Origin: Bacteroidales bacterium
GTDB lineage: Bacteria; Bacteroidota; Bacteroidia; Bacteroidales; NBLH01
Direction: 5' to 3'
Length of the DNA stretch: 64,000 nt
Assembly: GCA_046329965.1 (NCBI GenBank)
Contig: JAXLTR010000011.1
Location: 142,418-206,417, forward strand
The first letter of the stretch is position 1. Every line of letters starts with the position of its first letter. This document shows positions 29,493 through 43,056 of this stretch, piece by piece. Made by a program: the position numbers and the translations under genes. The notes beneath the pieces were generated by a model. It was not told the origin of the DNA. It ran no database searches and saw only the letters and a program-made list of their open reading frames with translations.

Positions 29493-30083
29493 ATGAAAGC
29501 AATCTTCATTCTCATTCTTGTATTAGCAACGCCAAACTTAAACCTGTTTTCGCAATACAGCTATACAGAATACAAAAAGACCCGGCAAATTTACATTGAA
29601 AATTTTAAAAATAAAGGTGGTAAAGTAAGGATAGAAGCAGGAAATATTGAACCAAACAGGTATATTGAGAGTTTTGCCTTTCCGGAAAACATAAATTTTG
29701 AAATTGAAGGCGAATTGGAGAATATAAATGCTACGCAAAACAAGCATGGTATTGCCGGTATTTATTTTGGTTACTATGCCTTTTGCATCAACTCAAAAAG
29801 TGAGTTTTCAATTATGGTCGATGGTGAAGGGATATACAGTACTTTTAATTTTACACAATCCGACAAAATTAAAAAAGGCAAAAACAAACTTACTCTGCGG
29901 AGAATTAGCGATACGTATTATTTCTTCATCAATGAGACTTTTGTATACCAAACAAAAGATGTTTCGGTATTAGATATTCTGGAAGAAGGGGTGCTTGGTT
30001 TCCTGGCTATGCACAATACGAGTTTATATGCATATAAATTAGAGGTGAATCATATTGAAAGCATTTATTCTGCAACAAGGTAA
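29493..30083 (+). CDS. Exported hypothetical protein (possibly jelly-roll/LamG-like)
   Basis: 196 aa with a signal peptide. 'NKLTLRRISDTYYFFINETFVY' is reminiscent of concanavalin-like lectin folds. This assignment is weak. Confidence 0.4.
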   Translation: MKAIFILILVLATPNLNLFSQYSYTEYKKTRQIYIENFKNKGGKVRIEAGNIEPNRYIESFAFPENINFEIEGELENINATQNKHGIAGIYFGYYAFCINSKSEFSIMVDGEGIYSTFNFTQSDKIKKGKNKLTLRRISDTYYFFINETFVYQTKDVSVLDILEEGVLGFLAMHNTSLYAYKLEVNHIESIYSATR

Positions 30084-30129: not shown

Positions 30130-30588
30130 ATGATTGGACATTTTTATAGAATTTTTGTGATTTCTTTTCTATTATTATTTGCCGGATGCCATATCTTAGC
30201 TCCCAACACCACCTGCCATCGTTGCTCGTATTACAGCTTTGATGGAATTGCCGTCCATTTAGCCGATTACAACATTATGGCCAAAAAACAGGTTTCGGAA
30301 AATGAATTTTTAGGGAGGAAAACCATTTATTTGCAAAAAGATAAAACCTATACCATCTATTTTAAACAATGCGAACCTCCTGTCTATACCATTAAGTGTC
30401 AAATATTTGACATTCAGGAAAATACTGGTAAAGACCTTATGGTATTGGCCGGTTTTACCTGCAATAAACAAACAGAGGCATACACCACATTTAGGATTAG
30501 TGAAACGAAAGAATATGAAATACAGGTGCTTGCAAATAAAAAAGTGGATGTGAGAATTAACCTGGGCCTGGCCAATGAAAACAGATGA
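30130..30588 (+). CDS. Lipoprotein, hypothetical
   Basis: 152 aa. It has the lipobox-like 'LLLFAGC'. Confidence 0.45.
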   Translation: MIGHFYRIFVISFLLLFAGCHILAPNTTCHRCSYYSFDGIAVHLADYNIMAKKQVSENEFLGRKTIYLQKDKTYTIYFKQCEPPVYTIKCQIFDIQENTGKDLMVLAGFTCNKQTEAYTTFRISETKEYEIQVLANKKVDVRINLGLANENR

Positions 30589-30615
30589 GTGCTATATAAA
30601 TAAATATTGCTTATT

Positions 30616-33600
30616 ATGAGATTATTAGAAACCAACAATTTGGAAATTAAAAGATGTGTTATTCTACTTTTTTTAGTTTTTATAACTGCCTTAAGTGCCA
30701 GTGCCCAAATAACAGAAAATGAAAAATACCTGGTATCGAAAACATTAAACCTTAGTGAATTAATCCAGTTAGATGATGATTATTTTTTAGTAAAAAGCAT
30801 TAAGGAAAAAAAGTGGGGTGTATTTGAAATTTCGGTTGATGGAGAAAATTTCAATTATCACAAACCATTGCTTTCGTGCAAATATGATACAATTGAGGGT
30901 TGGTTCAATAACAATGAACCTTTTCTTACTTTGAAAAAGAATAATAAGTATGGAATGTTTCTTAATCCATTTGAACAGGAAGTAAGAGAAGCATCTATAA
31001 ATTTAGAATTCGATTCATTGATAAGTATCAGGAAAGATGATGGCTATTATGCTATTGCCAAGAAAAAGAACAGGTGGGGATATGTAGACTGGCAAAACAA
31101 CACCATGCAGGATTTTAATTACAATAGTAAAGGTGATATTTTAAAACAACTATTTTCTGACAATACAGGAAATGATATCCGGCTTGTTTTTCAACATCCT
31201 GAATTATTAAAACCTAACGAAGTGCTTTTTTCTGAAAATAAGCACTATATGGCCATTTCTGAAATAGATTTGGCTTACGGAAATATAGTTTATTCATTGT
31301 ATACCACAAATCCTCCTGCATTAATAAGCTCAAATAAAATTGAGCTGGAGGAAAATAAACCGGTAATCGAAGCCATAAGTAACGATGGAAAATACTTTAG
31401 GATAGGCTGTTATACAAAAAATAGGTTTATAGCTTTTTATGATGTCAATGCTGAAAAATTGATTTACGGTAACCCTGATAAAATTAAACTGGATGTTCAA
31501 TATTTGAGTTCACATGGTTGCATATCAGGAAATTACGAAATTGACTGGAGGAATAAAGAAACGCTTAGAATAGTCAACAACCTGACTAAGATTGTCAGAA
31601 ACCTTGATAATAAAATATATGGGTTGAAAGATTATAGTGGGCAACGTGTTCAAATTTCGCCCGATGGGCAATATTTGGGGATTTATGAAAATAAAGTGCT
31701 TAGGATATGGGATACTTATAAAAATGAAATTGTATGGACTTCGCCAAAACAAAGTTTTTTTACAGAATATACTGAATTTGCCTTATTAAGCAACAACATA
31801 GTGGCAAGTACAAAGGTGTTGGAAAATCAAAAGGACGCCCATTTGTATTGGTTCGATTTTATTAAGAAAAAGGTGTTATTTAGCACCAATTATCAGACTT
31901 TTAATTCAATTCACTTTGTTAGTCAGTTTAATCAGGATCTTTTAATAGCCAATATAGATTCCGGTAAGAATACAATTAATTCAATTTCAAAGATTAACCT
32001 GGCAAGTGGAGCATTCACTGCTACAAAACCGGTGAACACTGGTTTTAAAGAATATAATGGTTTGGTACAGTCCTTTCTCGATTCATTAAAAAAGGCACAC
32101 CCACAGCAATTTGATTATTACGAGAAAAACAGGCAAAGCTTTTTTAGTTGGTATGCCATGTATGCAAAATATTTTAATGAAAATGGAACCATTAAAGACA
32201 GTTCTCAAAAATGTCAACTCGATGTTTCATTTTTCGAACCGATTAAAACACATTGGCTACCAGTAAGATATGAAATAATCAATGCACTTGACAATAAGGC
32301 CTGTTACCAGGATATTTCGGATCAGATTGAATTTCTTGTTCATAAATCTGCCCTCAGAAAGGAGTTACTGTTTTGGAACGGTAATAAAGTTCCTGATGAA
32401 CGAAAAGTTACAATGCTTTATACAAAGAATGGGGCACCTTTCTTTTACACTCATGATGGATATTACTTTGGCAGTAAGGAAATTGCAGGTTTTTTAAGGT
32501 TTGCCCACAAAGGCAAATCCTATGCATTCGAGCAATTTGATTTAAAATTTAACCGGCCTGATATTATTTTAGACCGTTTGGGCTATGCCGATAGTTCAAT
32601 AATTAATTTTTACCGGAAAGCCTATTATAAGCGGCTTCAAAAATACGGTTTTGACCATAAAGATTTGAATAGCGATAGGCACACGCCTGAAGTGCATATT
32701 GCCAATGAAGATGATTTACTAAAAACATTTACCCAAAAAGAGTTGATAATTAGATTAGAAGCCTCAGACAGTATTTATAAGTTAAACCGTATAAATGTTT
32801 GGATAAACGATGTTCCTGTTTTTGGTGTCAACGGGATAGATATCAGTAAATTAAACAAGAATAACTACAAAGATGAAATAAGCATCCAACTAAGCCACGG
32901 CAGAAATAAAATTCAGGTATCGGCACACAACAACAATGCAATAGAAAGCCTGAAAGAAACATTTTATGTTGATTATCAGGAAAAAATCATCCAAAAGCCT
33001 GATTTATATTTTATAACTATTGGGATTTCGAAATACGTCAATCCCATGAATAACCTTGCCTATGCCGATAAAGATGCCAGGGATCTGGTCCAGATGTTCA
33101 AGGCCAGAAGCGACATTTATAAAAATATCAGGATAATACCCCTTCTCAATCACAATGCAACAAAAGCAGGGATATTGTCGCTTAAAGACTCGCTAATGAA
33201 CTCGAAAACCGAAGATCATGTAATTTTGTTTTATGCAGGCCACGGTACTATTGGCGACGATGGGCAGTATTATATTTGTAATACCGACATCAGAAATGAC
33301 AATATTGTTGAAAGTGCTTTGCCATATATGGACTTTGAGGCGATACTCGATGGTATACCTGCCCGGAACAAGCTTTTGCTTATAGATGCCTGTCATTCTG
33401 GAGAAGCGGATGATGAAGACATTAAAATTGCGGAAAACAGTCCGGAACTTGGAAATACAAAAGCCCTGAAATTAAATTATATCCCACGTAAAATTACTCA
33501 ATCAACAACATATAATTCGCACACAACATTTGATTTGATGAAATCTCTTTTTTCTGATTTGCGACGAAATACAGGGGCAACCATTATTGCCTCAGCAGGG

Positions 33601-33825
33601 GCCGGTGAATTTGCCTACGAAGGTGGGGATATATCAAACGGTGTTTTTACCTATTTCTTAATAGAAGCATTGAAAAGCAAACAGGCAGATTACAATAAGG
33701 ATAACATAATTACAGTTAGTGAACTCGTTGATTTTATTTCAATAAAAGTACAAGAACATACTTCAGGAAAACAGAACCCTGGCAGGCGAAGTGAAAACCT
33801 TACATTGGATTTTGAAATTTGGTAG
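30616..33825 (+). CDS. Exported multidomain protein: WG-containing repeats + propeller-like region + C-terminal caspase (peptidase C14) domain
   Basis: The track starts at the TTG at 30607, and the ATG at 30616 is preferred. It has the signal peptide 'CVILLFLVFITALSASAQ' and WG repeats ('KKWGVFE', 'NKYGMFLN', 'NRWGYVDW'). The caspase dyad is 'VILFYAGHGT' (His codon 33241-33243) and 'LLLIDACHSGEA' (Cys codon 33391-33393). Confidence 0.8.
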   Translation: MRLLETNNLEIKRCVILLFLVFITALSASAQITENEKYLVSKTLNLSELIQLDDDYFLVKSIKEKKWGVFEISVDGENFNYHKPLLSCKYDTIEGWFNNNEPFLTLKKNNKYGMFLNPFEQEVREASINLEFDSLISIRKDDGYYAIAKKKNRWGYVDWQNNTMQDFNYNSKGDILKQLFSDNTGNDIRLVFQHPELLKPNEVLFSENKHYMAISEIDLAYGNIVYSLYTTNPPALISSNKIELEENKPVIEAISNDGKYFRIGCYTKNRFIAFYDVNAEKLIYGNPDKIKLDVQYLSSHGCISGNYEIDWRNKETLRIVNNLTKIVRNLDNKIYGLKDYSGQRVQISPDGQYLGIYENKVLRIWDTYKNEIVWTSPKQSFFTEYTEFALLSNNIVASTKVLENQKDAHLYWFDFIKKKVLFSTNYQTFNSIHFVSQFNQDLLIANIDSGKNTINSISKINLASGAFTATKPVNTGFKEYNGLVQSFLDSLKKAHPQQFDYYEKNRQSFFSWYAMYAKYFNENGTIKDSSQKCQLDVSFFEPIKTHWLPVRYEIINALDNKACYQDISDQIEFLVHKSALRKELLFWNGNKVPDERKVTMLYTKNGAPFFYTHDGYYFGSKEIAGFLRFAHKGKSYAFEQFDLKFNRPDIILDRLGYADSSIINFYRKAYYKRLQKYGFDHKDLNSDRHTPEVHIANEDDLLKTFTQKELIIRLEASDSIYKLNRINVWINDVPVFGVNGIDISKLNKNNYKDEISIQLSHGRNKIQVSAHNNNAIESLKETFYVDYQEKIIQKPDLYFITIGISKYVNPMNNLAYADKDARDLVQMFKARSDIYKNIRIIPLLNHNATKAGILSLKDSLMNSKTEDHVILFYAGHGTIGDDGQYYICNTDIRNDNIVESALPYMDFEAILDGIPARNKLLLIDACHSGEADDEDIKIAENSPELGNTKALKLNYIPRKITQSTTYNSHTTFDLMKSLFSDLRRNTGATIIASAGAGEFAYEGGDISNGVFTYFLIEALKSKQADYNKDNIITVSELVDFISIKVQEHTSGKQNPGRRSENLTLDFEIW

Positions 33826-33975
33826 TATGGTTTCAAAATATTCGAAATTCAAGATTATAAAGGCAAAGTGCGGATAAAATCAGGCTATTGAAAATTGAAA
33901 AGCCTAATTTTTGAGTACTTTTATACAATTAAATTTTTCGACTTTTCCAGGAAAATAATAAATCAGAAAACTCTT

Positions 33976-34749
33976 ATGGAAATAGTAATAATTTGTTTGG
34001 CTGCTTTTTTCACTGCCGTTCTCACCTTCTTTTCAGGCTTTGGGCTGGGAACGATTTTAGCTCCCGTTTTCGCGATATTTTTCCCAATTGATATTGCTAT
34101 CGCACTCACAGGCGTAGTGCATTTCTCGAACAATCTTTTCAAGATTGCATTAGTCGGAAAAAATACCGATAAAGCTGTTTTACTCCGTTTTGGGATACCT
34201 GCAATTCTAGCCTCGTTTGCCGGGGCCTGGTTGTTACTAAAAATCACCGTATTACCAACGCTTCTTCAATACGAACTTTGGGGTAAAGAATTTGAAATTA
34301 CACCTGTGAAACTAATCATTGCATTACTATTAATGGTGTTTTCAATACTCGAAATATCTCCTTCATTCCAAAAAGTTCAGTTTAGTAAAGACAAATTAGT
34401 ACTGGGAGGTATTCTAAGCGGGTTCTTTGGTGGCTTATCGGGCATTCAGGGAGCAATACGCAGTGCATTTCTAATAAAAAGCGGGCTATCCAAAGAAGCG
34501 TATATTGGAACAGGAGTAATAATTGCCTGTTTGGTTGATTTTACAAGACTTTCGGTTTATGCTTCACATTTTACCTCGGCAAACCTGCACGAAAACCTTA
34601 CACTATTAATTTCGGCAACACTTGCCGCAATAGCAGGTGCTTACTATGGGAAAAGTGTGCTTAAAAAAGTAACCTTACGGAGCATTCAACTCATAGTAGC
34701 AGTAATGCTTATTCTTATTTCTTTGGCATTGGGTATCGGTTTAATATAA
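33976..34749 (+). CDS. TauE/SafE (TSUP) family anion permease
   Basis: The track starts at the TTG at 33895. The ATG at 33976 gives 'MEIVIICLAAFFTAVLTFFSGFGLGTIL', the typical TSUP start. The protein is polytopic and Gly-rich. Confidence 0.78.
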   Translation: MEIVIICLAAFFTAVLTFFSGFGLGTILAPVFAIFFPIDIAIALTGVVHFSNNLFKIALVGKNTDKAVLLRFGIPAILASFAGAWLLLKITVLPTLLQYELWGKEFEITPVKLIIALLLMVFSILEISPSFQKVQFSKDKLVLGGILSGFFGGLSGIQGAIRSAFLIKSGLSKEAYIGTGVIIACLVDFTRLSVYASHFTSANLHENLTLLISATLAAIAGAYYGKSVLKKVTLRSIQLIVAVMLILISLALGIGLI

Positions 34750-34781: not shown

Positions 34782-34889
34782 TTTTCGCCTATTATTGGTT
34801 CGTCCAATGATTATAAGTCCTTTGTTCCCCGTTTTATTGTTGGGTTAGTGTTTGTGTCTGAAGGGATTCAGAAATTTCTTTTTCCCTGA
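34782..34889 (+). pseudogene. Stub of a DoxX-family membrane protein gene (N-terminal helix only, no start codon, premature TGA)
   Basis: The translation '...YKSFVPRFIVGLVFVSEGIQKFLFP*' matches my memory of the first TM segment of DoxX proteins ('GLVFLSEGIQKFLFP'). The frame ends at the TGA at 34887-34889 with nothing DoxX-like downstream. Confidence 0.45.
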
Positions 34890-35016: not shown

Positions 35017-37782
35017 ATGGCAGTCCAGGCAAATTTTACCGAAGAAAAAAATAAACTAAAGCAATACTTGAAAAGTGATAGTAATGAAGATGCAAAACGT
35101 CCTTTAATATATCCTCTCTTTCATAAATTGTATAAGGATAAATTCAAAATTGAATCGGATGCACATGGTGCCGATGTTTATATCGAAGGCCAAATAATTG
35201 TTGAATGTAAAACATCATACGCCGACTGGCTTGATGGTTTTTATCAGGCACTGCATTACCACAAAAAACATGGGCTGGTTTATTCCATTGTAATGGTTAT
35301 TGCCGAAAAATTTGTAGGTATTTGGCGTGTAAACCAATTAACCGAATATGCTGTTCTATTATCGCACACGGCCGATGCCAACAAAGCCCCAAATGTAATC
35401 GGTAAAGAAAATGCACGAAAAACAACCCAGGCCAATAAAAAACAAATACAGGAATCTGCAATCTATTGGCTCGAGCCCAAAGATCTTTCAGGTGATTTTT
35501 TCAAAGGTGAAGGAAAAAGTATTGACTATGAATTGCATGAAATACTAAACATCCTTAAAAATCCTGCTATCGAAAGGTTACAGATGAACACCCGCAACTT
35601 TATCGAACATATTGAACTCCTTAAAAAATTCTTCGACAATCCGCTCGATGCTGTCCATTGTTTCTATTCCATTGTGGCTTATTGGGATATCACATCGGTT
35701 GTTTCAACAAATGAATATTCCGATAAAATACGGATTGTAGGCTTTAAAGGACAAAAGCACAGCGACGAAGTAAGCATTAAACCATCTTTGTTCAAGAACT
35801 TTAAAAAGTTTGTCGAAAGCCGCTTTATATTTACCAACGAAGGTTCGGGGCTTACAGTCGATTATTATTTTAGCCGTTTCGATGAAGTAATGGCCCGTAT
35901 TGATCCGGAATATGTAAAACAGCATGGTATTTTCTTCACCGATATCAACCTGAGTAAATTTGCCCTTTGGTTTGCCAAAGACAAAATGAGCGAACAATTA
36001 GATGAACGTTACGTTTGGTTCGACCCTGCCGGCGGTTCGGGCAACCTGATTTCGAGCTGGAGGGGAAAACTGAAACATAAAATCATTTCAGAATTACAAC
36101 CCGATTTGTTGCGGATTATCGAGCGCCGTATGCGTATTGATCCGTGGCATGTCGAAACAGGGTTTACCATTATCCCTAAAACATCCGAAAATAAAGGGCT
36201 TAATTTTCTCGATTGTGGGGCAAAGGAATATGTTACTGAATTGGAAAAAGAGCTGAAACTCAAAAACCTTTTTATTGACAAACCGCTGGCATTTCTTTTG
36301 AATCCGCCTTATAAAAATACCGACGAAAACGAAACCGTACGCGAAAGTGCCGATTCAAATTACCGGATAAACAAAGATATACTCAAAATTACAGGCGAAG
36401 ATGCAGGCAAGGAACGTTACCTGGCATTTCTTGGGCAAATACTGAATATTGCAAAATACCAAAACGAACAAAACCCTGATTTTGAACCTTTGGTTTTGAT
36501 TTTTACACCTACATCGTGGTTAATTCCACGCCCTACTTACGTTAATTTCCGCATAATATGGGATACCCATTTCGAATATACCGATGGATTTATAATCACC
36601 AGCAACGAGTTTTTTAAATTACAGGGAAAATGGCCGCTTGCTTTTACCATATGGCGCTATAAACCAGATGAAAAAAGGGAAAATCACGTAAAAGCTTATG
36701 ATTTTACCAGTATTAAGCACGATGATTTAAATATCAATTGGAGTTTAGGAGACGAAGAGTTGAAGCTTTTAATTAACAATATCTTAAAAAATCAACAAAT
36801 AATTAAACTGGATAATTCAAGAGGTGAAATAAAGGAATCTCTTCCAGCTATCTTGCACAGAAATGGCAAGTATATTCGTCAAACAAGATTTGATTTTAGT
36901 CATGCAAAAAAGAATGAGGATGATAAAACAATAATAAGTGGATTTCCTTTGAATGATAAAACTAGACATTTCGAATTAAGCCGTGTTTGTGGAAATTTAA
37001 ATGGCGAATTTATTGGTTTTATGGACGATAATACACCTGTAAGATTAAAACAAGAATCATTAAGTCGGTTAACAAATAAACCAGATAGAATTTGGTTTAG
37101 ATTAGATAATGATTTTAAAGGTACCAATAAATCAAAAATATTTAATGGACCTTCCGATAATCGAGGATATTGTGCTTATGATATTGAATCGAGCAAGGCC
37201 ACTTTTTCATGGTTTGTAATTACTAAAGCATTAAATGGTATTTACCCAATTTGGGCAAACCAATTTGATATCTGGATTCCAGATATCAAACCGGAACAAG
37301 AAAAATACTGGCATTCCCTATGTTTTGCATTTGTTTTGGCCGAAAACCGCTGTGTAGTGACCAAATTTGAGAAAGACAATCCGGTACAAGGTGCACCCGA
37401 AGTATTTGTTGATAATCCTTTGTGCCCGGCCAACCCTGATGCATTTTGGGCAACAACGCTCGATAAAGAAGTTTTAAAAGAACACGGATTGGCTTTTGCC
37501 CTTGTAAACAAAATAAAAGAACTTTACAAAACATGGAATGTAAATTATTGCAAAGGTCAGTATTTACAAAACGTTGGCCTTGAAAATGAACCCTATTTCA
37601 AGTATTTCGATTATGATGATTTCCTTACCCCTTATTCGGGTTTAATCCAAATCCGCAAATATGCCGAAATCAATTCCTGTTCCGATTTATTGGATTTATT
37701 TACAGAAATACAGGCTTTAACCAAAAAAGTAAAAGAAGAAATTTACAGGCTTCTGGTGGTTGAATTTAAGTATTTTGAATAG
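35017..37782 (+). CDS. Single-polypeptide PD-(D/E)xK nuclease + gamma-class N6-adenine DNA methyltransferase fusion (Type IIG/IIL, MmeI-like architecture)
   Basis: 921 aa. The N-terminus 'GADVYIEGQIIVECKTS...FYQALHY' gives D53...E63-x-K65 (35173-35211). Motif X-like is 'HGIFFTDINLSKFALWF', motif I is 'WFDPAGGSGNL' (36016-36048) and motif IV is 'NPPY' (36301-36312). About 450 aa at the C-terminus are unassigned (a TRD candidate). No partner genes are present. Confidence 0.7.
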   Translation: MAVQANFTEEKNKLKQYLKSDSNEDAKRPLIYPLFHKLYKDKFKIESDAHGADVYIEGQIIVECKTSYADWLDGFYQALHYHKKHGLVYSIVMVIAEKFVGIWRVNQLTEYAVLLSHTADANKAPNVIGKENARKTTQANKKQIQESAIYWLEPKDLSGDFFKGEGKSIDYELHEILNILKNPAIERLQMNTRNFIEHIELLKKFFDNPLDAVHCFYSIVAYWDITSVVSTNEYSDKIRIVGFKGQKHSDEVSIKPSLFKNFKKFVESRFIFTNEGSGLTVDYYFSRFDEVMARIDPEYVKQHGIFFTDINLSKFALWFAKDKMSEQLDERYVWFDPAGGSGNLISSWRGKLKHKIISELQPDLLRIIERRMRIDPWHVETGFTIIPKTSENKGLNFLDCGAKEYVTELEKELKLKNLFIDKPLAFLLNPPYKNTDENETVRESADSNYRINKDILKITGEDAGKERYLAFLGQILNIAKYQNEQNPDFEPLVLIFTPTSWLIPRPTYVNFRIIWDTHFEYTDGFIITSNEFFKLQGKWPLAFTIWRYKPDEKRENHVKAYDFTSIKHDDLNINWSLGDEELKLLINNILKNQQIIKLDNSRGEIKESLPAILHRNGKYIRQTRFDFSHAKKNEDDKTIISGFPLNDKTRHFELSRVCGNLNGEFIGFMDDNTPVRLKQESLSRLTNKPDRIWFRLDNDFKGTNKSKIFNGPSDNRGYCAYDIESSKATFSWFVITKALNGIYPIWANQFDIWIPDIKPEQEKYWHSLCFAFVLAENRCVVTKFEKDNPVQGAPEVFVDNPLCPANPDAFWATTLDKEVLKEHGLAFALVNKIKELYKTWNVNYCKGQYLQNVGLENEPYFKYFDYDDFLTPYSGLIQIRKYAEINSCSDLLDLFTEIQALTKKVKEEIYRLLVVEFKYFE

Positions 37783-37798
37783 CTGGAATTTAGAAGCC

Positions 37799-37861
37799 CT
37801 CAAAGGTTGGTCACTGATTCGGACACTGAGCTTGTCGAAGTGACCGAAGTGAACCTTTGAG
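37799..37861. repeat. Long imperfect hairpin between convergent genes, carrying a GAGCTTGTCGAAG loop motif
   Basis: CTCAAAGGTTGGTCAC (37799-37814) pairs with GTGACC (37840-37845) and AACCTTTGAG (37852-37861). The loop contains CTGAGCTTGTCGAAG. There is no T-run, so it is REP-like rather than a classic terminator. Confidence 0.65.
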
Positions 37862-37873
37862 AGCTGTTTATCA

Positions 37874-39484
37874 TTATTTTGCTTCAACCGGAAGCAAATC
37901 TTTCGTATTTAAATTTGATTTGGTAAAAATTCCCAATACGCCTTTAAAACCTACTGTCATAACAATATTTATGAAAAACGCCAGAAATGAAAGGAGTAGT
38001 AATGAACCTGCAAGTGCAGCCAATATCATATACAAATCAAACTCACCGTTGTGATATACTGTTCTGCGCAACATTCCCTTTAATCCGGCCATTCCCATAA
38101 AAGCACCCATTCCGATACCTCCGATCAAATGTGCCCAGAAATGGAAATTGGCCAATTTCTGGCTGTAAAGTTTTGCACCATTGGTTAAAATTGGCAGCAA
38201 CAAATAAATGGCTGAATACAAGGTCATAGTTAATCCTACCAAGATAGCTACATGTACATGTGGTCCAACAATCCATTGGGTGTTATGTAAGATGCGGTTC
38301 AAGCCCAAATCGGCCTGCATAATGCCAGCTGGTACTGCCAGGGCAAAGCCCAATAAACCACCCAGTAAAAACTGGAGCGGGTTGCTCATTTTTAGTGGCC
38401 GGGCCTGCCATAAGGTAGCTAAGGTAATAAAAAAGGCCAGTCCCTGGGTGATTAGTTCAAAAGCAGTAAGCATTTCACCGGAGAATATTTTCAAAAATCC
38501 GGGTTGTGCCTGATCCGACATTAAGTGGTGTGACCAAACAAACCATGAAACAATCATTTCGACCAGTAAAGCTATTCTTGCCCACTTTTCCATGAAAATT
38601 TTCTTTCCGGTAATCAGGCTTGCAAGAAGGTACCAGGTACCGGCAACAAAAATCAAAACCAATCCGTCAGCAATCAGGTCAAGTCCCCACCAGAACCAAT
38701 TTTTATATAGCAAGGCATCAATGGCCGAATGTTTCAGATCTGTGCCAAACAAAGCGGCTATCATGTATACCAGTATTAATACGCCTGTAAATGTAATGAT
38801 ACCGGCGTTTAACAAAGTATCTACCGTACCCCGGGCTATAGCTGCCACAGGTGTTGAAACATAATAAGTTCCATCGGCATTTTTCAATCGTTTAAATCCC
38901 AATGCTGAAATAAGCACTCCTTTGGGTTGTTTTTCATGTCCTTCGGGGTTGTAGCTGATGGTTTTAAAGATATTGAACACCCAAAGGAGTGTTCCTACCA
39001 TTACAAGTGCAATTCCCAAAATAAAGAATGTTCCGCCCAACACGCTGAATTGTGTGAAATCGGCAGGTAGCGGCCAGTATAAGGTGTACAGAGGTGAATA
39101 ATGCGATAGGAATCCGGCAAACCAGAATGTGAAAGTACCAATGGCAATCAGCCACAAGGTATAATTGGCCAGTTTAAAACTCCACAAGGGTTTCTTCATT
39201 AAAAAGGGCACCAAAAAAAGGAAAGCGCCAAATACAATAGAATAGGAAGAACCGAAAATCCCAACCAACGGGTGGGCAGTCATAATGGCAAAGTATTGTT
39301 TGTCATCCATCATTACTCCTGGTGTTACCAGATGCATCCGCATAATTAAACCTTCCAGAACAGCAAAAAGATAATAAACCAAGCCTACCACCACAAAGCG
39401 GAGGGTCAGTTTTTGCATGGGTGTTAAGGATTTTACATTGAATAATCCCTGTTCACCATTTATAAATGTATTGATAAAACTCAT
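37874..39484 (-). CDS. Haem-copper-oxidase superfamily subunit I with NO-reductase-like active-site substitutions
   Basis: 536 aa with about 12-13 TM helices. The haem His ligands are retained ('MTAHPLVG' H71; 'GPHVHVA' H409/H411), as is the HH pair ('WSHHLM' H319/H320). The helix-VI motif reads 'FWWGLDLIADG' (38663-38698), where oxidases have 'WW.GHP.VY' and cNOR has 'WW..HLWVEG'. Confidence 0.85.
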   Translation of the reverse strand: MSFINTFINGEQGLFNVKSLTPMQKLTLRFVVVGLVYYLFAVLEGLIMRMHLVTPGVMMDDKQYFAIMTAHPLVGIFGSSYSIVFGAFLFLVPFLMKKPLWSFKLANYTLWLIAIGTFTFWFAGFLSHYSPLYTLYWPLPADFTQFSVLGGTFFILGIALVMVGTLLWVFNIFKTISYNPEGHEKQPKGVLISALGFKRLKNADGTYYVSTPVAAIARGTVDTLLNAGIITFTGVLILVYMIAALFGTDLKHSAIDALLYKNWFWWGLDLIADGLVLIFVAGTWYLLASLITGKKIFMEKWARIALLVEMIVSWFVWSHHLMSDQAQPGFLKIFSGEMLTAFELITQGLAFFITLATLWQARPLKMSNPLQFLLGGLLGFALAVPAGIMQADLGLNRILHNTQWIVGPHVHVAILVGLTMTLYSAIYLLLPILTNGAKLYSQKLANFHFWAHLIGGIGMGAFMGMAGLKGMLRRTVYHNGEFDLYMILAALAGSLLLLSFLAFFINIVMTVGFKGVLGIFTKSNLNTKDLLPVEAK

Positions 39485-39508
39485 AGTAAAATGTATTTAA
39501 TGAATAAA

Positions 39509-40054
39509 TTAATAAACTATCACAACATCCTTTACCACCATATTGTAACCTTTCCAGCCTGAATATTCGGTGGAGCGAATGGTGAGTACTTCAGGCTTTT
39601 CGAATTTCCAGAGTACATCGTTGATGTGTCCGGGTAATACCTGCATCTGAAACAGCATGGAATTGTCCTGCCTGAAAAGTCCGAAACCATAAGTCAAATC
39701 ATCGGAAGTTACCCTGAAACTAACCAGTTCATTACTTTTGATTTTCAAAGTGTCGGCAGGCAAAATAAACTGATGATCTTTGATGCTGATGTCGAAAACC
39801 TTATCCGCTTTCATTTCGCTGCGATTAAGGTCAATGGGTTTCCACGGTATAGTTTCGTGGGTAACAATGTGTAAACTTACGCCAAGAACTACCAGAAAAC
39901 TTACAAAGGAATAAAAGAGGGTGGGTTTTACCGCACTTTCTTTCCCAGTTCTTGTGATCTGGTAACCAAACCAGGCCATAAGAAGCAGAATAACAACGAC
40001 ATAGAAGGTATATGCCAGAGTTTGTCCATTTAAAACAACTTGTGAATCTACCAT
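39509..40054 (-). CDS. Subunit II-like cupredoxin protein with degenerate CuA site
   Basis: 181 aa with two N-terminal TM helices and a beta-rich domain. 'STEYSGWKGYNM' (39539-39574) aligns position-for-position with the CuA loop C-x-E-x-C-G-x-x-H-x-x-M, with both Cys changed to Ser and His to Gly. The upstream 'DDLTYGF' sits where 'DV.HSF' is expected. Confidence 0.65.
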   Translation of the reverse strand: MVDSQVVLNGQTLAYTFYVVVILLLMAWFGYQITRTGKESAVKPTLFYSFVSFLVVLGVSLHIVTHETIPWKPIDLNRSEMKADKVFDISIKDHQFILPADTLKIKSNELVSFRVTSDDLTYGFGLFRQDNSMLFQMQVLPGHINDVLWKFEKPEVLTIRSTEYSGWKGYNMVVKDVVIVY

Positions 40055-40084
40055 TTTAATTGATTTTTAGTGAATATTTGACTT

Positions 40085-40504
40085 TTATAAAATTGAATTT
40101 TGGTTTATAGTATTTTTTAAATCTGCTAGTTTTGTTGAACTCAGTACTTCATTGATATTTTCCTGAATTGCTGTCCATTTATCATGCATTACACATTTTT
40201 CAGAAAGTGCGCAGTTTCCATAACCAAAAAAGCAATTGTTACTAATAATATTGTCACCTGTTGCCTCAATAATATTTAATAGCGTTAATTGGCCAATATT
40301 TTTTAAAATTTTATAACCTCCATCTTTACCCTGCACACTCTTTAATAATTCATTTTTTGTCATTAATGTTAGCTGCTTACGCAAATATCTGAATGGAATT
40401 TTAAGATTTTCATAGAGTTCATTGGCACTATATAATTTGTTTTCATCAGCTGACATAAAACCGAGTATTTGAAGCGCGTATTCTGTAGTTTTGCTGAAAT
40501 TCAT
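40085..40504 (-). CDS. Rrf2-family regulator (Fe-S type), first gene of the oxidase/NOR-like operon
   Basis: 139 aa. 'TEYALQILGFM' gives the wHTH. 'CFFGYGNCALSEKCVMH' gives C-x6-C-x5-C-x2-H. It ends 30 nt upstream of the subunit II gene. Confidence 0.85.
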   Translation of the reverse strand: MNFSKTTEYALQILGFMSADENKLYSANELYENLKIPFRYLRKQLTLMTKNELLKSVQGKDGGYKILKNIGQLTLLNIIEATGDNIISNNCFFGYGNCALSEKCVMHDKWTAIQENINEVLSSTKLADLKNTINQNSIL

Positions 40505-40548: not shown

Positions 40549-42213
40549 TTTTATTGAAAAGGAAAATTATTTTGAATCTTTTACAAAAGCAAGCAAAATT
40601 TCATTGTAGTTTCCATTTAGTTATTATTCCATCCCTTCGATTTTAAAGCACGAAACCAACTATCAATAAATGATTACCGCTATTGAATTATAAAGAATTG
40701 AGCCAGATATGCAAAATATTCAAATTATAATAATTGTCCAGGAGTAGACACTCAATCTGTATTTATCAACATTCAAACAATAAAATCAACTTTCCCACTG
40801 TGGTGGAAATATTTACTGCAAATCTGGTAAACTTCATTTTACAACTGTTTTATTGCACATATTTTCAACAAAGTGGCTCTTGATGCAATAAATCAAATAT
40901 CTATTGTAGCTATTGTTTGTGGGCGAAACAATCAATCCGCAAAGATAGGCCCGGTCGCAACTTTTCTCATAGCCAGCCCCGATTTTTTTCGGGGAGCGAT
41001 AGCGAATAAACGCAGCAAAAGCTTCCAGCATAAACATTCTTTTCCTTAACTATTCCCGTCTTTGGTCCCTGAGCTTGCCGAAGGGCCTTTTGCACTTATT
41101 GCTCCCTAACACTATATAAATGAAGCATATTACCCTTCAAATATAAAATAATAGAGTTTAAATTAGGGAAATCCCGATTTAGTGAAGCTTATATTGGATA
41201 ATCAATGTTTAGCTGAACTTAATCGGGATTAATTGTTTATATGTTTCATTTTTAAATCTTTCGTTATGGATAAAACTGGTGCATATTTCAGGTTATAGGC
41301 TCAGGCTCGTTATCATCGTTCGCTTTTTAGTTATTATGGTTGCAGGCAGTGTTTTCATTCAGCGCTTCGTTGTTTGCGTTTGGCTTCTTTGGTTCGTTCA
41401 GGTTTTCATAGGGGGCTTTTATAGTTCCCTTGGTTGTTGAGCGCAGTCGAAACATGGACATTGTAGTCGAAATGTTATTAAAGAAAATAGTAACTGTGAT
41501 ACCTTATAACCATGAAACCCTGCAATTTTGAAACCATGGGCATTGAAACCGGAACCACGCTAAGACATACAATTATCACCAGGCACTTTCCCTGCCCCCG
41601 GAAAAAACACTTTGCTGGCGCAAAACTCATTTTTTCCGTGTTCAGGTAAAAAGCCTTATATCTTTGCATTTTGAATCAGCTGTACAATACACATCCGGCA
41701 CATTAAAATTTTACAACTATAAATCCCAAAATCAGTAGACGTAAAATTTTAATAAGCCGGTAAAGAAACTCTGCAAAGGAATAGCTCCCTGGCGATTAAA
41801 AACCTCACATATTAAGCGGTATTCTTTTTTGCCACTGGTAGCCTGGCCTGATTCGGTCTAGGTAAAGAATCTACTTTCTTCGATCTAACTTTATTGGTTC
41901 TGATTCTTCTGTGCTAGGCCAGTCTCCCAGCTTGGGTTTATAAGGTATCCCATCCGGCAGGCTTGTCAAAAAATGCCGCCAGCACAACCAAGCCCCTTTT
42001 TATATCATCCTGATTTTTCTTTTTTGGCATAAAAAGGAGCTTAGTTGCCCTTCGGGTGGCATCTGTAACATGGTCATTGAGCGGAGTCGAAATGCCATGC
42101 TGTCATCATTTTTGAGCTTCACCTGCCGTCTGGTCTGTGCTGCTACTCTTGTCTGGCTGCACTATTCCGTAAACTCCATAAAGCAGCCAGCCAACCGCAG
42201 CACTTTGTTTTGT

Positions 42214-42443
42214 AGCGGGCCCTGCGAGGGTTGCCAGGCGTTTTTCAGTCGGTTATTTTATTCATTCTGATTTGATTTTTAAAGGTAAAATAACCGCCTA
42301 AAAAACTCCAGAGTTGCGTCCGGTCGCCATTTCGTTCCTACATGGACGCCCAGCCACTAAGCTCCAGCATCTTCAAAAGCAGCTCGTACCTCACTTCTCG
42401 CATTTTTTTGCAAGGCTGGCAACCCTACCCGCAGCGGGCCCGC
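42214..42443. repeat. Imperfect GC-rich inverted repeat pair (about 27-30 nt arms) enclosing about 170 bp, with an internal 11-bp perfect hairpin
   Basis: The left arm is AGCGGGCCCTGCGAGGGTTGCCAGGCG (42214-42240). The reverse complement of 42414-42443 is GCGGGCCCGCTGCGGGTAGGGTTGCCAGCC. The inner hairpin is CGGTTATTTTA (42250-42260) with TAAAATAACCG (42286-42296). Confidence 0.6.
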
Positions 42444-42885
42444 GCTCTCGTCGACAGTGCCGTTCTTTGATTTCCATCCGCCGTTCTCGTATCAGGAAAA
42501 AATCTATACCCACCCACCACCCTTTTAAATCAGGGCTTATATTATTAATATTCAACCTAATAAACACTTTATTTAATAAATAAATACCTTAAAATAAAAG
42601 GTTTAGTTCTGAGCAATTTTATAAAGATGTCCTGCATCTTTATATCTTTATTTACCAGCGAATAAAGATTAATATAATCTGATTTTCCACTTTATTCCTT
42701 AAAAATCCTTCAAGAGAGAGGAACTTTGTTTAGCACCCCTGCCAGTATCATTGACTTAACAACTATCCTCAATTTCTTTTATTGTAGATAGCCATTTAAA
42801 TCAAAAAGAAATAAAAAAGGCAGCAACTAAGAATGGCGTTCTCGCTGCCTCCTTATTAGAAAAATTAAAAAAAAGGCAGCAAAGT

Positions 42886-43056
42886 TAAATCAGCCAGATT
42901 AAGAAAAATCAAGGCCAGCTTTATAAATTTTCATTTTTCTATTGTCTATCAGCAAAATTTATAAAGCTGCCAGTGGTTTTAAAAATAAAGTTTGGCTATG
43001 CCCTTTTGATTAAACTTTTTTTTTAAAAGCCTTGCTTTTTCTGCCTGGCTGATTTA
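42886..43056. repeat. Nested palindromes (outer 12 bp, inner 16 bp perfect)
   Basis: The outer arms are TAAATCAGCCAG (42886-42897) and CTGGCTGATTTA (43045-43056). The inner arms are CAGCTTTATAAATTTT (42916-42931) and AAAATTTATAAAGCTG (42954-42969). Confidence 0.7.

Follow-up and report, generated by a model that had tools for sequence, protein, structure and literature searches.

A 921-codon gene encodes nuclease and methyltransferase motifs in one chain

We analysed a 64,000-nucleotide stretch of a Bacteroidales genome (GenBank assembly GCA_046329965.1, contig JAXLTR010000011.1, positions 142,418 to 206,417; hereafter the window), which contains an uninterrupted open reading frame (ORF) of 921 amino acids (aa) on its forward strand (Table 1). 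The neighbouring gene on the left is TauE, and the genes on the right, on the opposite strand, are COX1-like and Rrf2. An earlier note on this DNA had read the ORF as an orphan fusion of a PD-(D/E)xK nuclease and an N6-adenine methyltransferase, and the motifs behind that reading were confirmed both in the translation and in homolog alignments. D53 is followed by E63-C-K65, giving the spacing D-X9-E-X-K, and H303 is followed by GIFFTD (304–309), FDPAGGSGN (335–343) and NPPY (429–432). All of these residues are invariant in an alignment of 31 homologs that share 61–78% identity. Once distant relatives were added to the alignment (down to about 22–27% identity), K65, D336, P337 and G342 were still invariant, and D53, E63 and NPPY were kept in at least 90% of sequences. 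The window protein is 100% identical to a "hypothetical protein" encoded on a 344-kb contig of a Bacteroidales metagenome-assembled genome (MAG). The existence of hundreds of full-length homologs, together with the conservation of the motifs, rules out a chance ORF and indicates, at the level of sequence, a real gene under purifying selection.

Table 1. Features of the window locus, in window positions, and defence genes downstream of family members at other loci, in positions of the locus named.
Feature	Position	Strand	Basis or detail
Gene for predicted single-chain nuclease-methyltransferase, stop codon included	35017..37782	+	Uninterrupted ORF, ATG start, 921 aa
N-terminal PD-(D/E)xK nuclease domain (predicted), aa 1–160	35017..35496	+	Motif, domain model, profile
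Putative catalytic residues D53, E63 and K65; conserved E24 and Q77..Y81	35173-35175 (D53), 35203-35205 (E63), 35209-35211 (K65)	+	
Linker/connector, aa 161–295	35497..35901	+	Model secondary structure: mixed helices, short strands
Gamma-class N6-adenine methyltransferase core (predicted), aa 296–540	35902..36636	+	Motifs, profile, fold
Variable segment, putative target-recognition domain, aa 541–720	36637..37176	+	Entropy, identity, position
Conserved C-terminal domain, aa 721–921	37177..37779	+	Invariant columns, identity, model
DoxX gene remnant, about the first 36 codons, start codon lost	34782..34889	+	tblastn, DNA alignment
Long imperfect hairpin between convergent gene ends	37795..37865	.	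Inverted repeat; -30.8 kcal/mol, z -3.6
Downstream defence gene, L043	7650-8522		
Downstream defence gene, L025	6351-7262		
Downstream defence gene, L039	12782-13798		
Downstream defence gene, L045	4495-5475		
Downstream defence gene, L012	3317-6394		
Downstream defence gene, L052	12825-13910		
Downstream defence gene, L021	4092-5261		
Downstream defence gene, L015	3377-4324		

The protein is no orphan if that word is taken to mean unique. A word-indexed search with 90% clustering found at least 594 relatives of the window protein at E <= 0.001. The best 120 of these 594 are nearly all 900–935 aa long and 60–77% identical to it across their full length; methylase and nuclease domains are absent from the precomputed Pfam annotation of all 120. 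When 1.84 billion cluster representatives were searched exhaustively, 313 relatives emerged, including a few full-length proteins at 24–36% identity. We also scanned 185,579 species, each represented by one genome, for two exact peptide patterns and obtained 138 loci with a relative, a number that is a lower bound because the patterns were exact. The loci from the pattern scan are mostly from Bacteroidota; other bins are labelled Ignavibacteriota, WOR-3, Coatesbacteria, Verrucomicrobia, Spirochaetes, Syntrophaceae and Phycisphaerales, although some of these labels may be binning errors. The distribution of the family is sporadic over several phyla.

A few relatives depart from the common form. 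P0176 (881 aa, 22% identity over its full length) has lost the D and E of the nuclease triad, and has DPFCCGGS in place of motif I and DLAS in place of NPPY; judging by these changes, it looks like a catalytically dead paralogue retained at full length. P0135 (1123 aa) and P0136 (1101 aa) have a C-terminal extension of ~220 aa without a Pfam match, and P0083 (1085 aa), which is labelled a very-short-patch-repair endonuclease at its source, has a precomputed PF04480 domain.

The predicted domain order resembles that of Type IIG and Type IIL enzymes

We modelled residues 1–165 of the window protein alone and obtained a beta-beta-alpha-beta-beta core with a predicted local distance difference test score (pLDDT) of 92 and a predicted template-modelling score (pTM) of 0.87. 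D53 lies at the start of a strand, E63-x-K65 lies in the following strand, and these are followed by a long helix that includes Q77...Y81. D53, E63, K65, G58, W71 and V94 are invariant in the nuclease-domain alignment, which includes relatives down to 21% identity within the domain. When the isolated domain was compared with known structures using Foldseek, no match was significant, and the top of the resulting list consisted almost wholly of PD-(D/E)xK nucleases: BpuSI, Hjc, DrdV, Cas4 SSO0001, RecU, MGME1 and HincII. The connector that follows is located where MmeI has a helical arm and BpuSI has a connector. We observed no match of the connector to Pfam or to any ATPase family, and its length of 135 aa is too short for an ATPase domain.

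The methyltransferase core is the most conserved region of the family. It contains motif X (GIFFTD), motif I (FDPAGGSGN), an acidic residue (E359), NFLD (396–399) and motif IV (NPPY), and the motifs run in the gamma-class order X, I ... IV. Foldseek matches for this region were to BpuSI, HsdM, CamA, BseCI and M.TaqI-like folds. Distant members of the family have sub-threshold matches to N6_Mtase, MmeI_Mtase and Eco57I (E 4e-4 to 0.05), the first two each in 7 of 19 members. The family profile found two matches only, EcoR124 HsdM at E 0.022 and BpuSI at E 0.031, in both cases over motifs X–I. On this sequence evidence, the methyltransferase assignment is right, yet the family lies outside every curated model that we queried.

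Downstream of the methyltransferase core, the family separates into a variable and a conserved region. Column entropy is maximal at residues 541–660 and elevated up to ~720, and residues 721–921 are well conserved. Mean pairwise identity among 73 family members is 50% in the nuclease domain, 53% in the connector, 67% in the methylase core, 44% in residues 541–720 and 60% in the C-terminal domain. The earlier description of a divergent C-terminal half is therefore accurate for residues ~541–720 but not for the last 200 residues, which are better conserved than the nuclease domain. The same pattern is seen in pairs of proteins: two copies from one Bacteroidales MAG bin, L019 and L030, share 43% identity in residues 541–720 and 71–83% in the other four regions, and Flavobacterium copies L034 and L044 share 60% identity in residues 541–720 and 78–92% elsewhere. 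Residues 541–720 are located where MmeI and BpuSI have their target-recognition domain (TRD), and the pattern of variability is that expected for such a domain, suggesting that they may be the TRD of this family.

The MAG bin that includes L019 and L030 (JAOZQN01) has three copies of the gene on its contigs, the other being L022. Two of the three copies are ~97% identical, possibly as strain variants or by duplication, and the third differs mainly at residues 541–720. These copies could represent several specificities in one cell, or the bin could be mixed.

The C-terminal domain has deeply conserved residues at N777-x-C779, N788-P789, N800-P801, G875 and Q878, and ends in a long helix; the model has a pLDDT of 85–98 over residues 800–910. 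MmeI likewise ends in conserved helices of unknown function (PMC2731913).

We also modelled the whole chain with AlphaFold2 using a 31-sequence alignment (mean pLDDT 79, pTM 0.54) and compared the model with the Protein Data Bank (PDB) using Foldseek. The top-ranked match to the full-length model was the Type IIG enzyme BpuSI (E 5.7e-12), followed by the Type ISP enzymes LlaBIII and LlaGI, and then by the Type IIL enzymes DrdV and MmeI, with ~850–1000 aligned columns; the matches include the Type IIL structures 5hr4 and 7lvv. Subsequent ranks were occupied by PglX/BrxX of BREX systems (E about 2.5e-5), and then by HsdM subunits, CamA, M.BseCI and BsaXI. In BFVD, a collection of predicted viral structures, the full-length model matched adenine-specific DNA methylases of viruses. 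According to the model, the order of domains is collinear with that of MmeI, DrdV and BpuSI: nuclease, linker, gamma-class N6-adenine methyltransferase, variable segment and conserved C-terminal domain. These matches bear out the placement of the protein in an MmeI/Eco57I-like single-chain class.

Homologs lie in varied neighbourhoods without a conserved partner gene

We typed the immediate neighbours of family members (61 upstream and 69 downstream) using Pfam and PADLOC, and scanned for recurrent genes by all-against-all clustering of the ORFs within 10 kb at 80 loci; genes beyond the immediate neighbours were compared only with one another for recurrence. At the window locus, there is no adjoining methyltransferase, specificity, helicase or ATPase gene, in agreement with the earlier note. 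Across the 80 loci, we observed no neighbour common beyond close relatives, so homologs do not sit inside larger multi-gene systems, an arrangement that the note had named as a reason to abandon its interpretation. Three homologs found on long contigs each stand alone as one gene, and the housekeeping genes around them are unrelated. The 61 upstream neighbours are nearly all housekeeping genes, and the families tallied among them include no methylase, helicase or specificity subunit. There is likewise no methylase among the 69 immediate downstream neighbours, no BREX component among the neighbour families in the PADLOC and Pfam tallies, and no HsdS or HsdR subunit in the neighbour tallies other than one weak HSDR_N-like match in one locus. 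Loci from Flavobacterium share a 1,500-aa gene upstream and a 290-aa gene downstream, and we considered these genes as candidate conserved partners. We rejected them as an obligate system: the upstream gene encodes DNA polymerase III alpha, consistent with housekeeping synteny, and the downstream gene is AbiD.

The downstream side has a different character. In about 16 of 69 loci, a defence gene lies immediately downstream on the same strand, starting 0–50 bp past the stop codon of the family gene. These defence genes are varied: AbiD/Abi_2 (five loci), Mrr (two), PDC-M03A (two) and PDC-S02 (two), as well as Drt2, a cNMP-binding PycTIR effector, SIR2, GmrSD, an AbiEii-like AAA ATPase and DUF4357 (positions of eight downstream defence genes are listed in Table 1). 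With defence genes downstream and housekeeping genes upstream, the layout may be polar and cassette-like rather than that of a plain defence island. Overall, the family is found in defence islands, often at their 5' edge, without an obligate partner. The lack of a conserved adjacent partner methylase favours an enzyme that methylates, and thereby guards, the DNA of its host unaided, in the manner of the Type IIL enzymes MmeI and DrdV.

The gene is best read as a self-sufficient restriction-modification enzyme

Based on the sequence motifs and the structure models, we estimate a probability of about 0.72 that the product of the gene is a restriction-modification enzyme of the Type IIG/IIL kind that works as a single, self-sufficient chain. 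By analogy with MmeI, DrdV and BpuSI, residues about 541–800 would read a short asymmetric DNA site. The NPPY pocket would flip one adenine and methylate it at N6, with S-adenosylmethionine bound at FDPAGGSGN and E359, and sites in the host DNA would be protected in this way. The nuclease, tethered by the connector, would cut DNA that is unmethylated, a fixed distance away from the site, and cleavage would probably be licensed by several unmethylated, enzyme-bound sites coming together. The gene was probably acquired horizontally, and in many genomes it stands at the head of a small defence cluster.

Several observations weigh against this interpretation. Neither the window protein nor the family profile matched anything at threshold in Pfam, NCBIfam, PADLOC or PDB sequences, so classification depends on motifs and predicted fold. 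A profile of the nuclease domain found a single match among 177,635 PDB sequences, MmeI, and that match was not significant (E 1.2 over 48 residues). On the nuclease fold, whose absence the earlier note had named as a ground for rejecting its reading, the isolated domain had no Foldseek match at E <= 0.001, the best being BpuSI at E 0.013 (probability 0.84). The resemblance to the MmeI nuclease core described in the earlier note is therefore weak in overall similarity, although the catalytic triads are in register: the profile alignment places D53/E63/K65 and QALHY on D70/E80/K82 and QALDY of MmeI, with the same X9 spacing, and the endonuclease motif of MmeI is defined by D70/E80/K82 (PMC2731913). 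For residues 541–921, the profile had no meaningful match among PDB sequences, and no match by sequence or fold was obtained at the level of the domain, so the TRD label derives from position, variability and whole-chain collinearity. The model of the methyltransferase core has low-confidence loops at 349–382 and 433–448. TM-scores of the whole-chain matches are 0.2–0.3 and do not establish the relative placement of the domains; such low scores are usual for flexible multi-domain chains. Lastly, a non-conserved methylase could lie a few genes away from family members or elsewhere in their genomes.

This last point bears on a rival reading, in which the protein is a BpuSI/Eco57I-like Type IIG enzyme whose methylation does not suffice on its own and that needs at least one further methyltransferase, encoded at another place in the genome. 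Genes for the methylases M1 and M2 accompany that of BpuSI, the best structural match, and neither the fold nor the D-to-ExK spacing is able to separate self-sufficient from methylase-dependent lifestyles. We nevertheless consider dependence on separate methylases unlikely. The survey of 61 upstream and 69 downstream neighbours found no methylase, and no neighbour recurred within ~10 kb at the 80 loci. Moreover, a restriction enzyme that moves horizontally as a lone gene would kill its new host unless it brought protection with it, and in spacing (D-X9-E-X-K) the family agrees with MmeI rather than with BpuSI (PD-x15-ExK).

The enzyme could also be more than MmeI-like, with the C-terminal 200 residues forming a new control module, and/or with restriction coupled to a downstream effector, but we regard either elaboration as rather doubtful. 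If true, the C-terminal module, which is better conserved than the nuclease domain and has no detectable relative, might license cleavage or couple the enzyme to a second effector, and the two-gene cassettes that the gene recurrently heads, each time with a different defence gene, might reflect coupling of restriction to a back-up effector rather than mere co-location in a defence island.

The protein is quite unlikely to be a solitary DNA methyltransferase, acting as an epigenetic regulator or anti-restriction device, with an N-terminal nuclease-like domain that no longer cuts. Consistent with a solitary methyltransferase, the methyltransferase core is the best-conserved part of the protein, the isolated N-terminal domain gives weak nuclease-fold matches, and many genomes carry the gene amid housekeeping genes. 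By contrast, no variation is seen at D53, E63 or K65 among relatives with as little as 21% identity in the nuclease domain, and the triad is lost only in one degenerate relative in which the methylase motifs are lost too. The neighbourhood of defence genes and the fast-evolving putative specificity segment also fit an enzyme engaged in an arms race.

We consider it very improbable that the protein is a PglX-like component, present here as a fragment, of some larger system of several genes that is BREX/DISARM-like or Type I/ISP-like. Structures of PglX/BrxX, Type ISP enzymes and HsdM are among the fold matches; however, no BREX, DISARM, HsdR/HsdS or helicase genes are conserved alongside the family at the 80 loci, PADLOC models do not recognise the protein, the connector of ~135 aa has no ATPase domain, and PglX is not known to have an N-terminal PD-(D/E)xK nuclease. 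Equally far-fetched is methylation and cleavage of a non-DNA substrate such as RNA or protein: NPPY is not exclusive to DNA methylases (NPPY-type methyltransferases include HemK/PrmC and rRNA m6A/m2G enzymes) and the C-terminal half has no recognisable DNA-binding family, but the significant whole-chain fold matches are all to DNA restriction-modification enzymes or DNA adenine methylases, and both the similarity to HsdM and BpuSI over motifs X–I and the defence-island context point to DNA.

A truncated DoxX gene and other features surround the gene in the window

Between TauE and the 921-aa gene lies what the earlier note had called a DoxX gene stub. This 45-codon stub was not recognised by Pfam and did not align with the one DoxX protein with which we compared it directly. 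It could be identified because closer relatives carry a homologous gene. A scan for relatives of the TauE neighbour found 80 metagenome loci, and in ~35 of them tblastn placed a homolog of the stub directly after TauE. L088, the closest relative, has this homolog as an intact gene of 152 aa (Pfam DoxX E 1e-14), which confirms the identity of the stub. DNA identity with L088 is ~85–90% from TauE through about codon 36 of DoxX, and there is none past ~34889. Hence, the DoxX gene is truncated, with a sharp junction ~128 bp upstream of the ATG of the 921-aa gene. The empty site could not be rebuilt, as these relatives share TauE and DoxX only and neither outer flank.

Horizontal acquisition, also proposed in the earlier note, is supported by the sporadic distribution of the family, the unrelated neighbourhoods of its members and the truncated DoxX junction. 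Base composition gives no clear foreign signal, with a G+C content of ~0.29–0.41 for the gene and 0.30–0.45 for its surroundings. Scans of the window for tRNAs and Rfam families were empty, and no tRNA integration site was visible. No family member was detected by tblastn in 72,556 plasmids or in 50,697 phage genomes. The sole member in a viral collection is on an IMG/VR contig (L167, 9929-12766, 48% identity). It is located at the end of this 36-kb phage contig, immediately after a tape-measure gene and two large genes of the tail region, and may be phage-carried.

The hairpin downstream of the 921-aa gene is real, but its description as REP-like (repetitive extragenic palindromic) is unproven: it is present as a single copy, and the only other similarity that we found in the window is a 15-nt match at chance level. 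Given its location between the ends of the 921-aa gene and the COX1-like gene, it is possibly a bidirectional terminator.

Other genes in this part of the window are described here for completeness. For TauE (33895-34749, +), the alignment with all 80 related loci begins no earlier than about residue 28 of the listed ORF, suggesting that the true start is probably the ATG at 33976 (MEIVIICLAAF...) rather than the upstream TTG. Two genes upstream of the 921-aa gene, a 1072-aa protein (30607-33825, +) has a C-terminal caspase domain (Peptidase_C14, E 1.4e-18) and a long N-terminal region without a Pfam match; the small ORFs ahead of it (29493-30083 and 30130-30588) have no family match. On the minus strand, 37874-40504 encodes a COX1-like haem-copper oxidase subunit (536 aa), a 181-aa protein without a Pfam match and an Rrf2 regulator, which could form a small oxidase or nitric oxide reductase-like operon; these genes are not syntenic with the TauE-DoxX relatives. 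The region 41100-43000 is apparently non-coding, with raised G+C content (to 0.49 at 42000-42500) and no tRNA or Rfam matches, and contains four hairpins of 20–27 nt (41170-41230, 41695-41760, 42237-42309 and 42905-42980).

Significance and comparison with known systems

Judged by its sequences, the family is sizeable, well conserved and unannotated in the libraries that we searched. The most fitting description is that of a known kind of enzyme in a new sequence family, and REBASE may already list members as putative Type IIG enzymes. If the sequence-based and model-based assignment is correct, genomes and metagenomes of Bacteroidota carry a restriction barrier that is overlooked by annotation based on Pfam, NCBIfam and PADLOC. 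Recognising the family would improve censuses of defence systems, and could help to explain m6A motifs of Bacteroidota and to overcome transformation barriers in members of this phylum that are hard to engineer. Single-chain restriction-modification enzymes are a source of new DNA specificities, some of which this family probably offers, and among restriction enzymes, those of the MmeI family, in which the recognition domain is part of the single chain, are the easiest to re-engineer (PMC2731914). The family leaves the existing understanding of how such enzymes work unchanged, and for a specialist it would be useful rather than surprising.

Three types of known system resemble the family in part but differ from it in their defining features. 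LlaGI and LlaBIII, enzymes of Type ISP and the second-ranked fold matches, also combine a nuclease, a gamma-class methylase and a TRD (putative in the window family) in a single chain; however, they have an Mrr-type nuclease and a RecA-like ATPase/translocase between nuclease and methylase, whereas the connector of the window family has no ATPase. PglX/BrxX of BREX systems is similarly a large gamma-class m6A methylase, and it has a built-in TRD. PglX is known to work only inside a six-gene BREX operon and is not known to have a PD-(D/E)xK nuclease; by contrast, no genes of the brxA/B/C-pglX-pglZ-brxL operon flank the window family. HsdM of Type I systems is encoded alongside HsdS and HsdR, which the neighbour tallies of the window family do not show. 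The window family thus lacks the features by which Type ISP, BREX and Type I systems are defined.

The likeness is greater to BpuSI (PDB 3s1s; PMC3185434), which has an N-terminal PD-(D/E)xK nuclease, a connector, an M.TaqI-like NPPY methylase and a C-terminal TRD, and which is the top fold match both for the whole chain and for the N-terminal domain. Unlike the window family, with its X9 spacing and no partner, BpuSI has a PD-x15-ExK motif and two separate methylases, M1 and M2 (PMC3185434), and its sequence similarity to the family is confined to motifs X–I. The Type IIL enzymes MmeI (PMC2731913) and DrdV (bioRxiv 10.1101/2021.01.06.425610) share with the family a single chain of ~920 aa in the order PD-ExK nuclease, connector, gamma-class m6A methylase, TRD (putative in the window family) and conserved C-terminal helices, the D-X9-E-X-K spacing, a conserved glutamate near residue 24/25 and, on the evidence of gene context for the window family, the lack of a partner methylase gene. 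As in the MmeI family, identity among members is high, and variation is concentrated in the putative TRD. Type IIL behaviour includes methylating a single strand of an asymmetric site and cutting about 20 nt away. The differences are that Pfam MmeI_N, MmeI_hel, MmeI_TRD and MmeI_C never match, that MmeI_Mtase matches below threshold and in distant relatives only, and that the linker holds beta strands besides helices. Membership of the MmeI family is defined by whole-length similarity to MmeI at a BLAST E < 1e-20 (PMC2731913), and by this sequence-based definition the window family lies outside it. Based on analogy and on the structure models, we conclude that the window family is closest to MmeI and DrdV in its probable mode of working, and closest to BpuSI in fold statistics.

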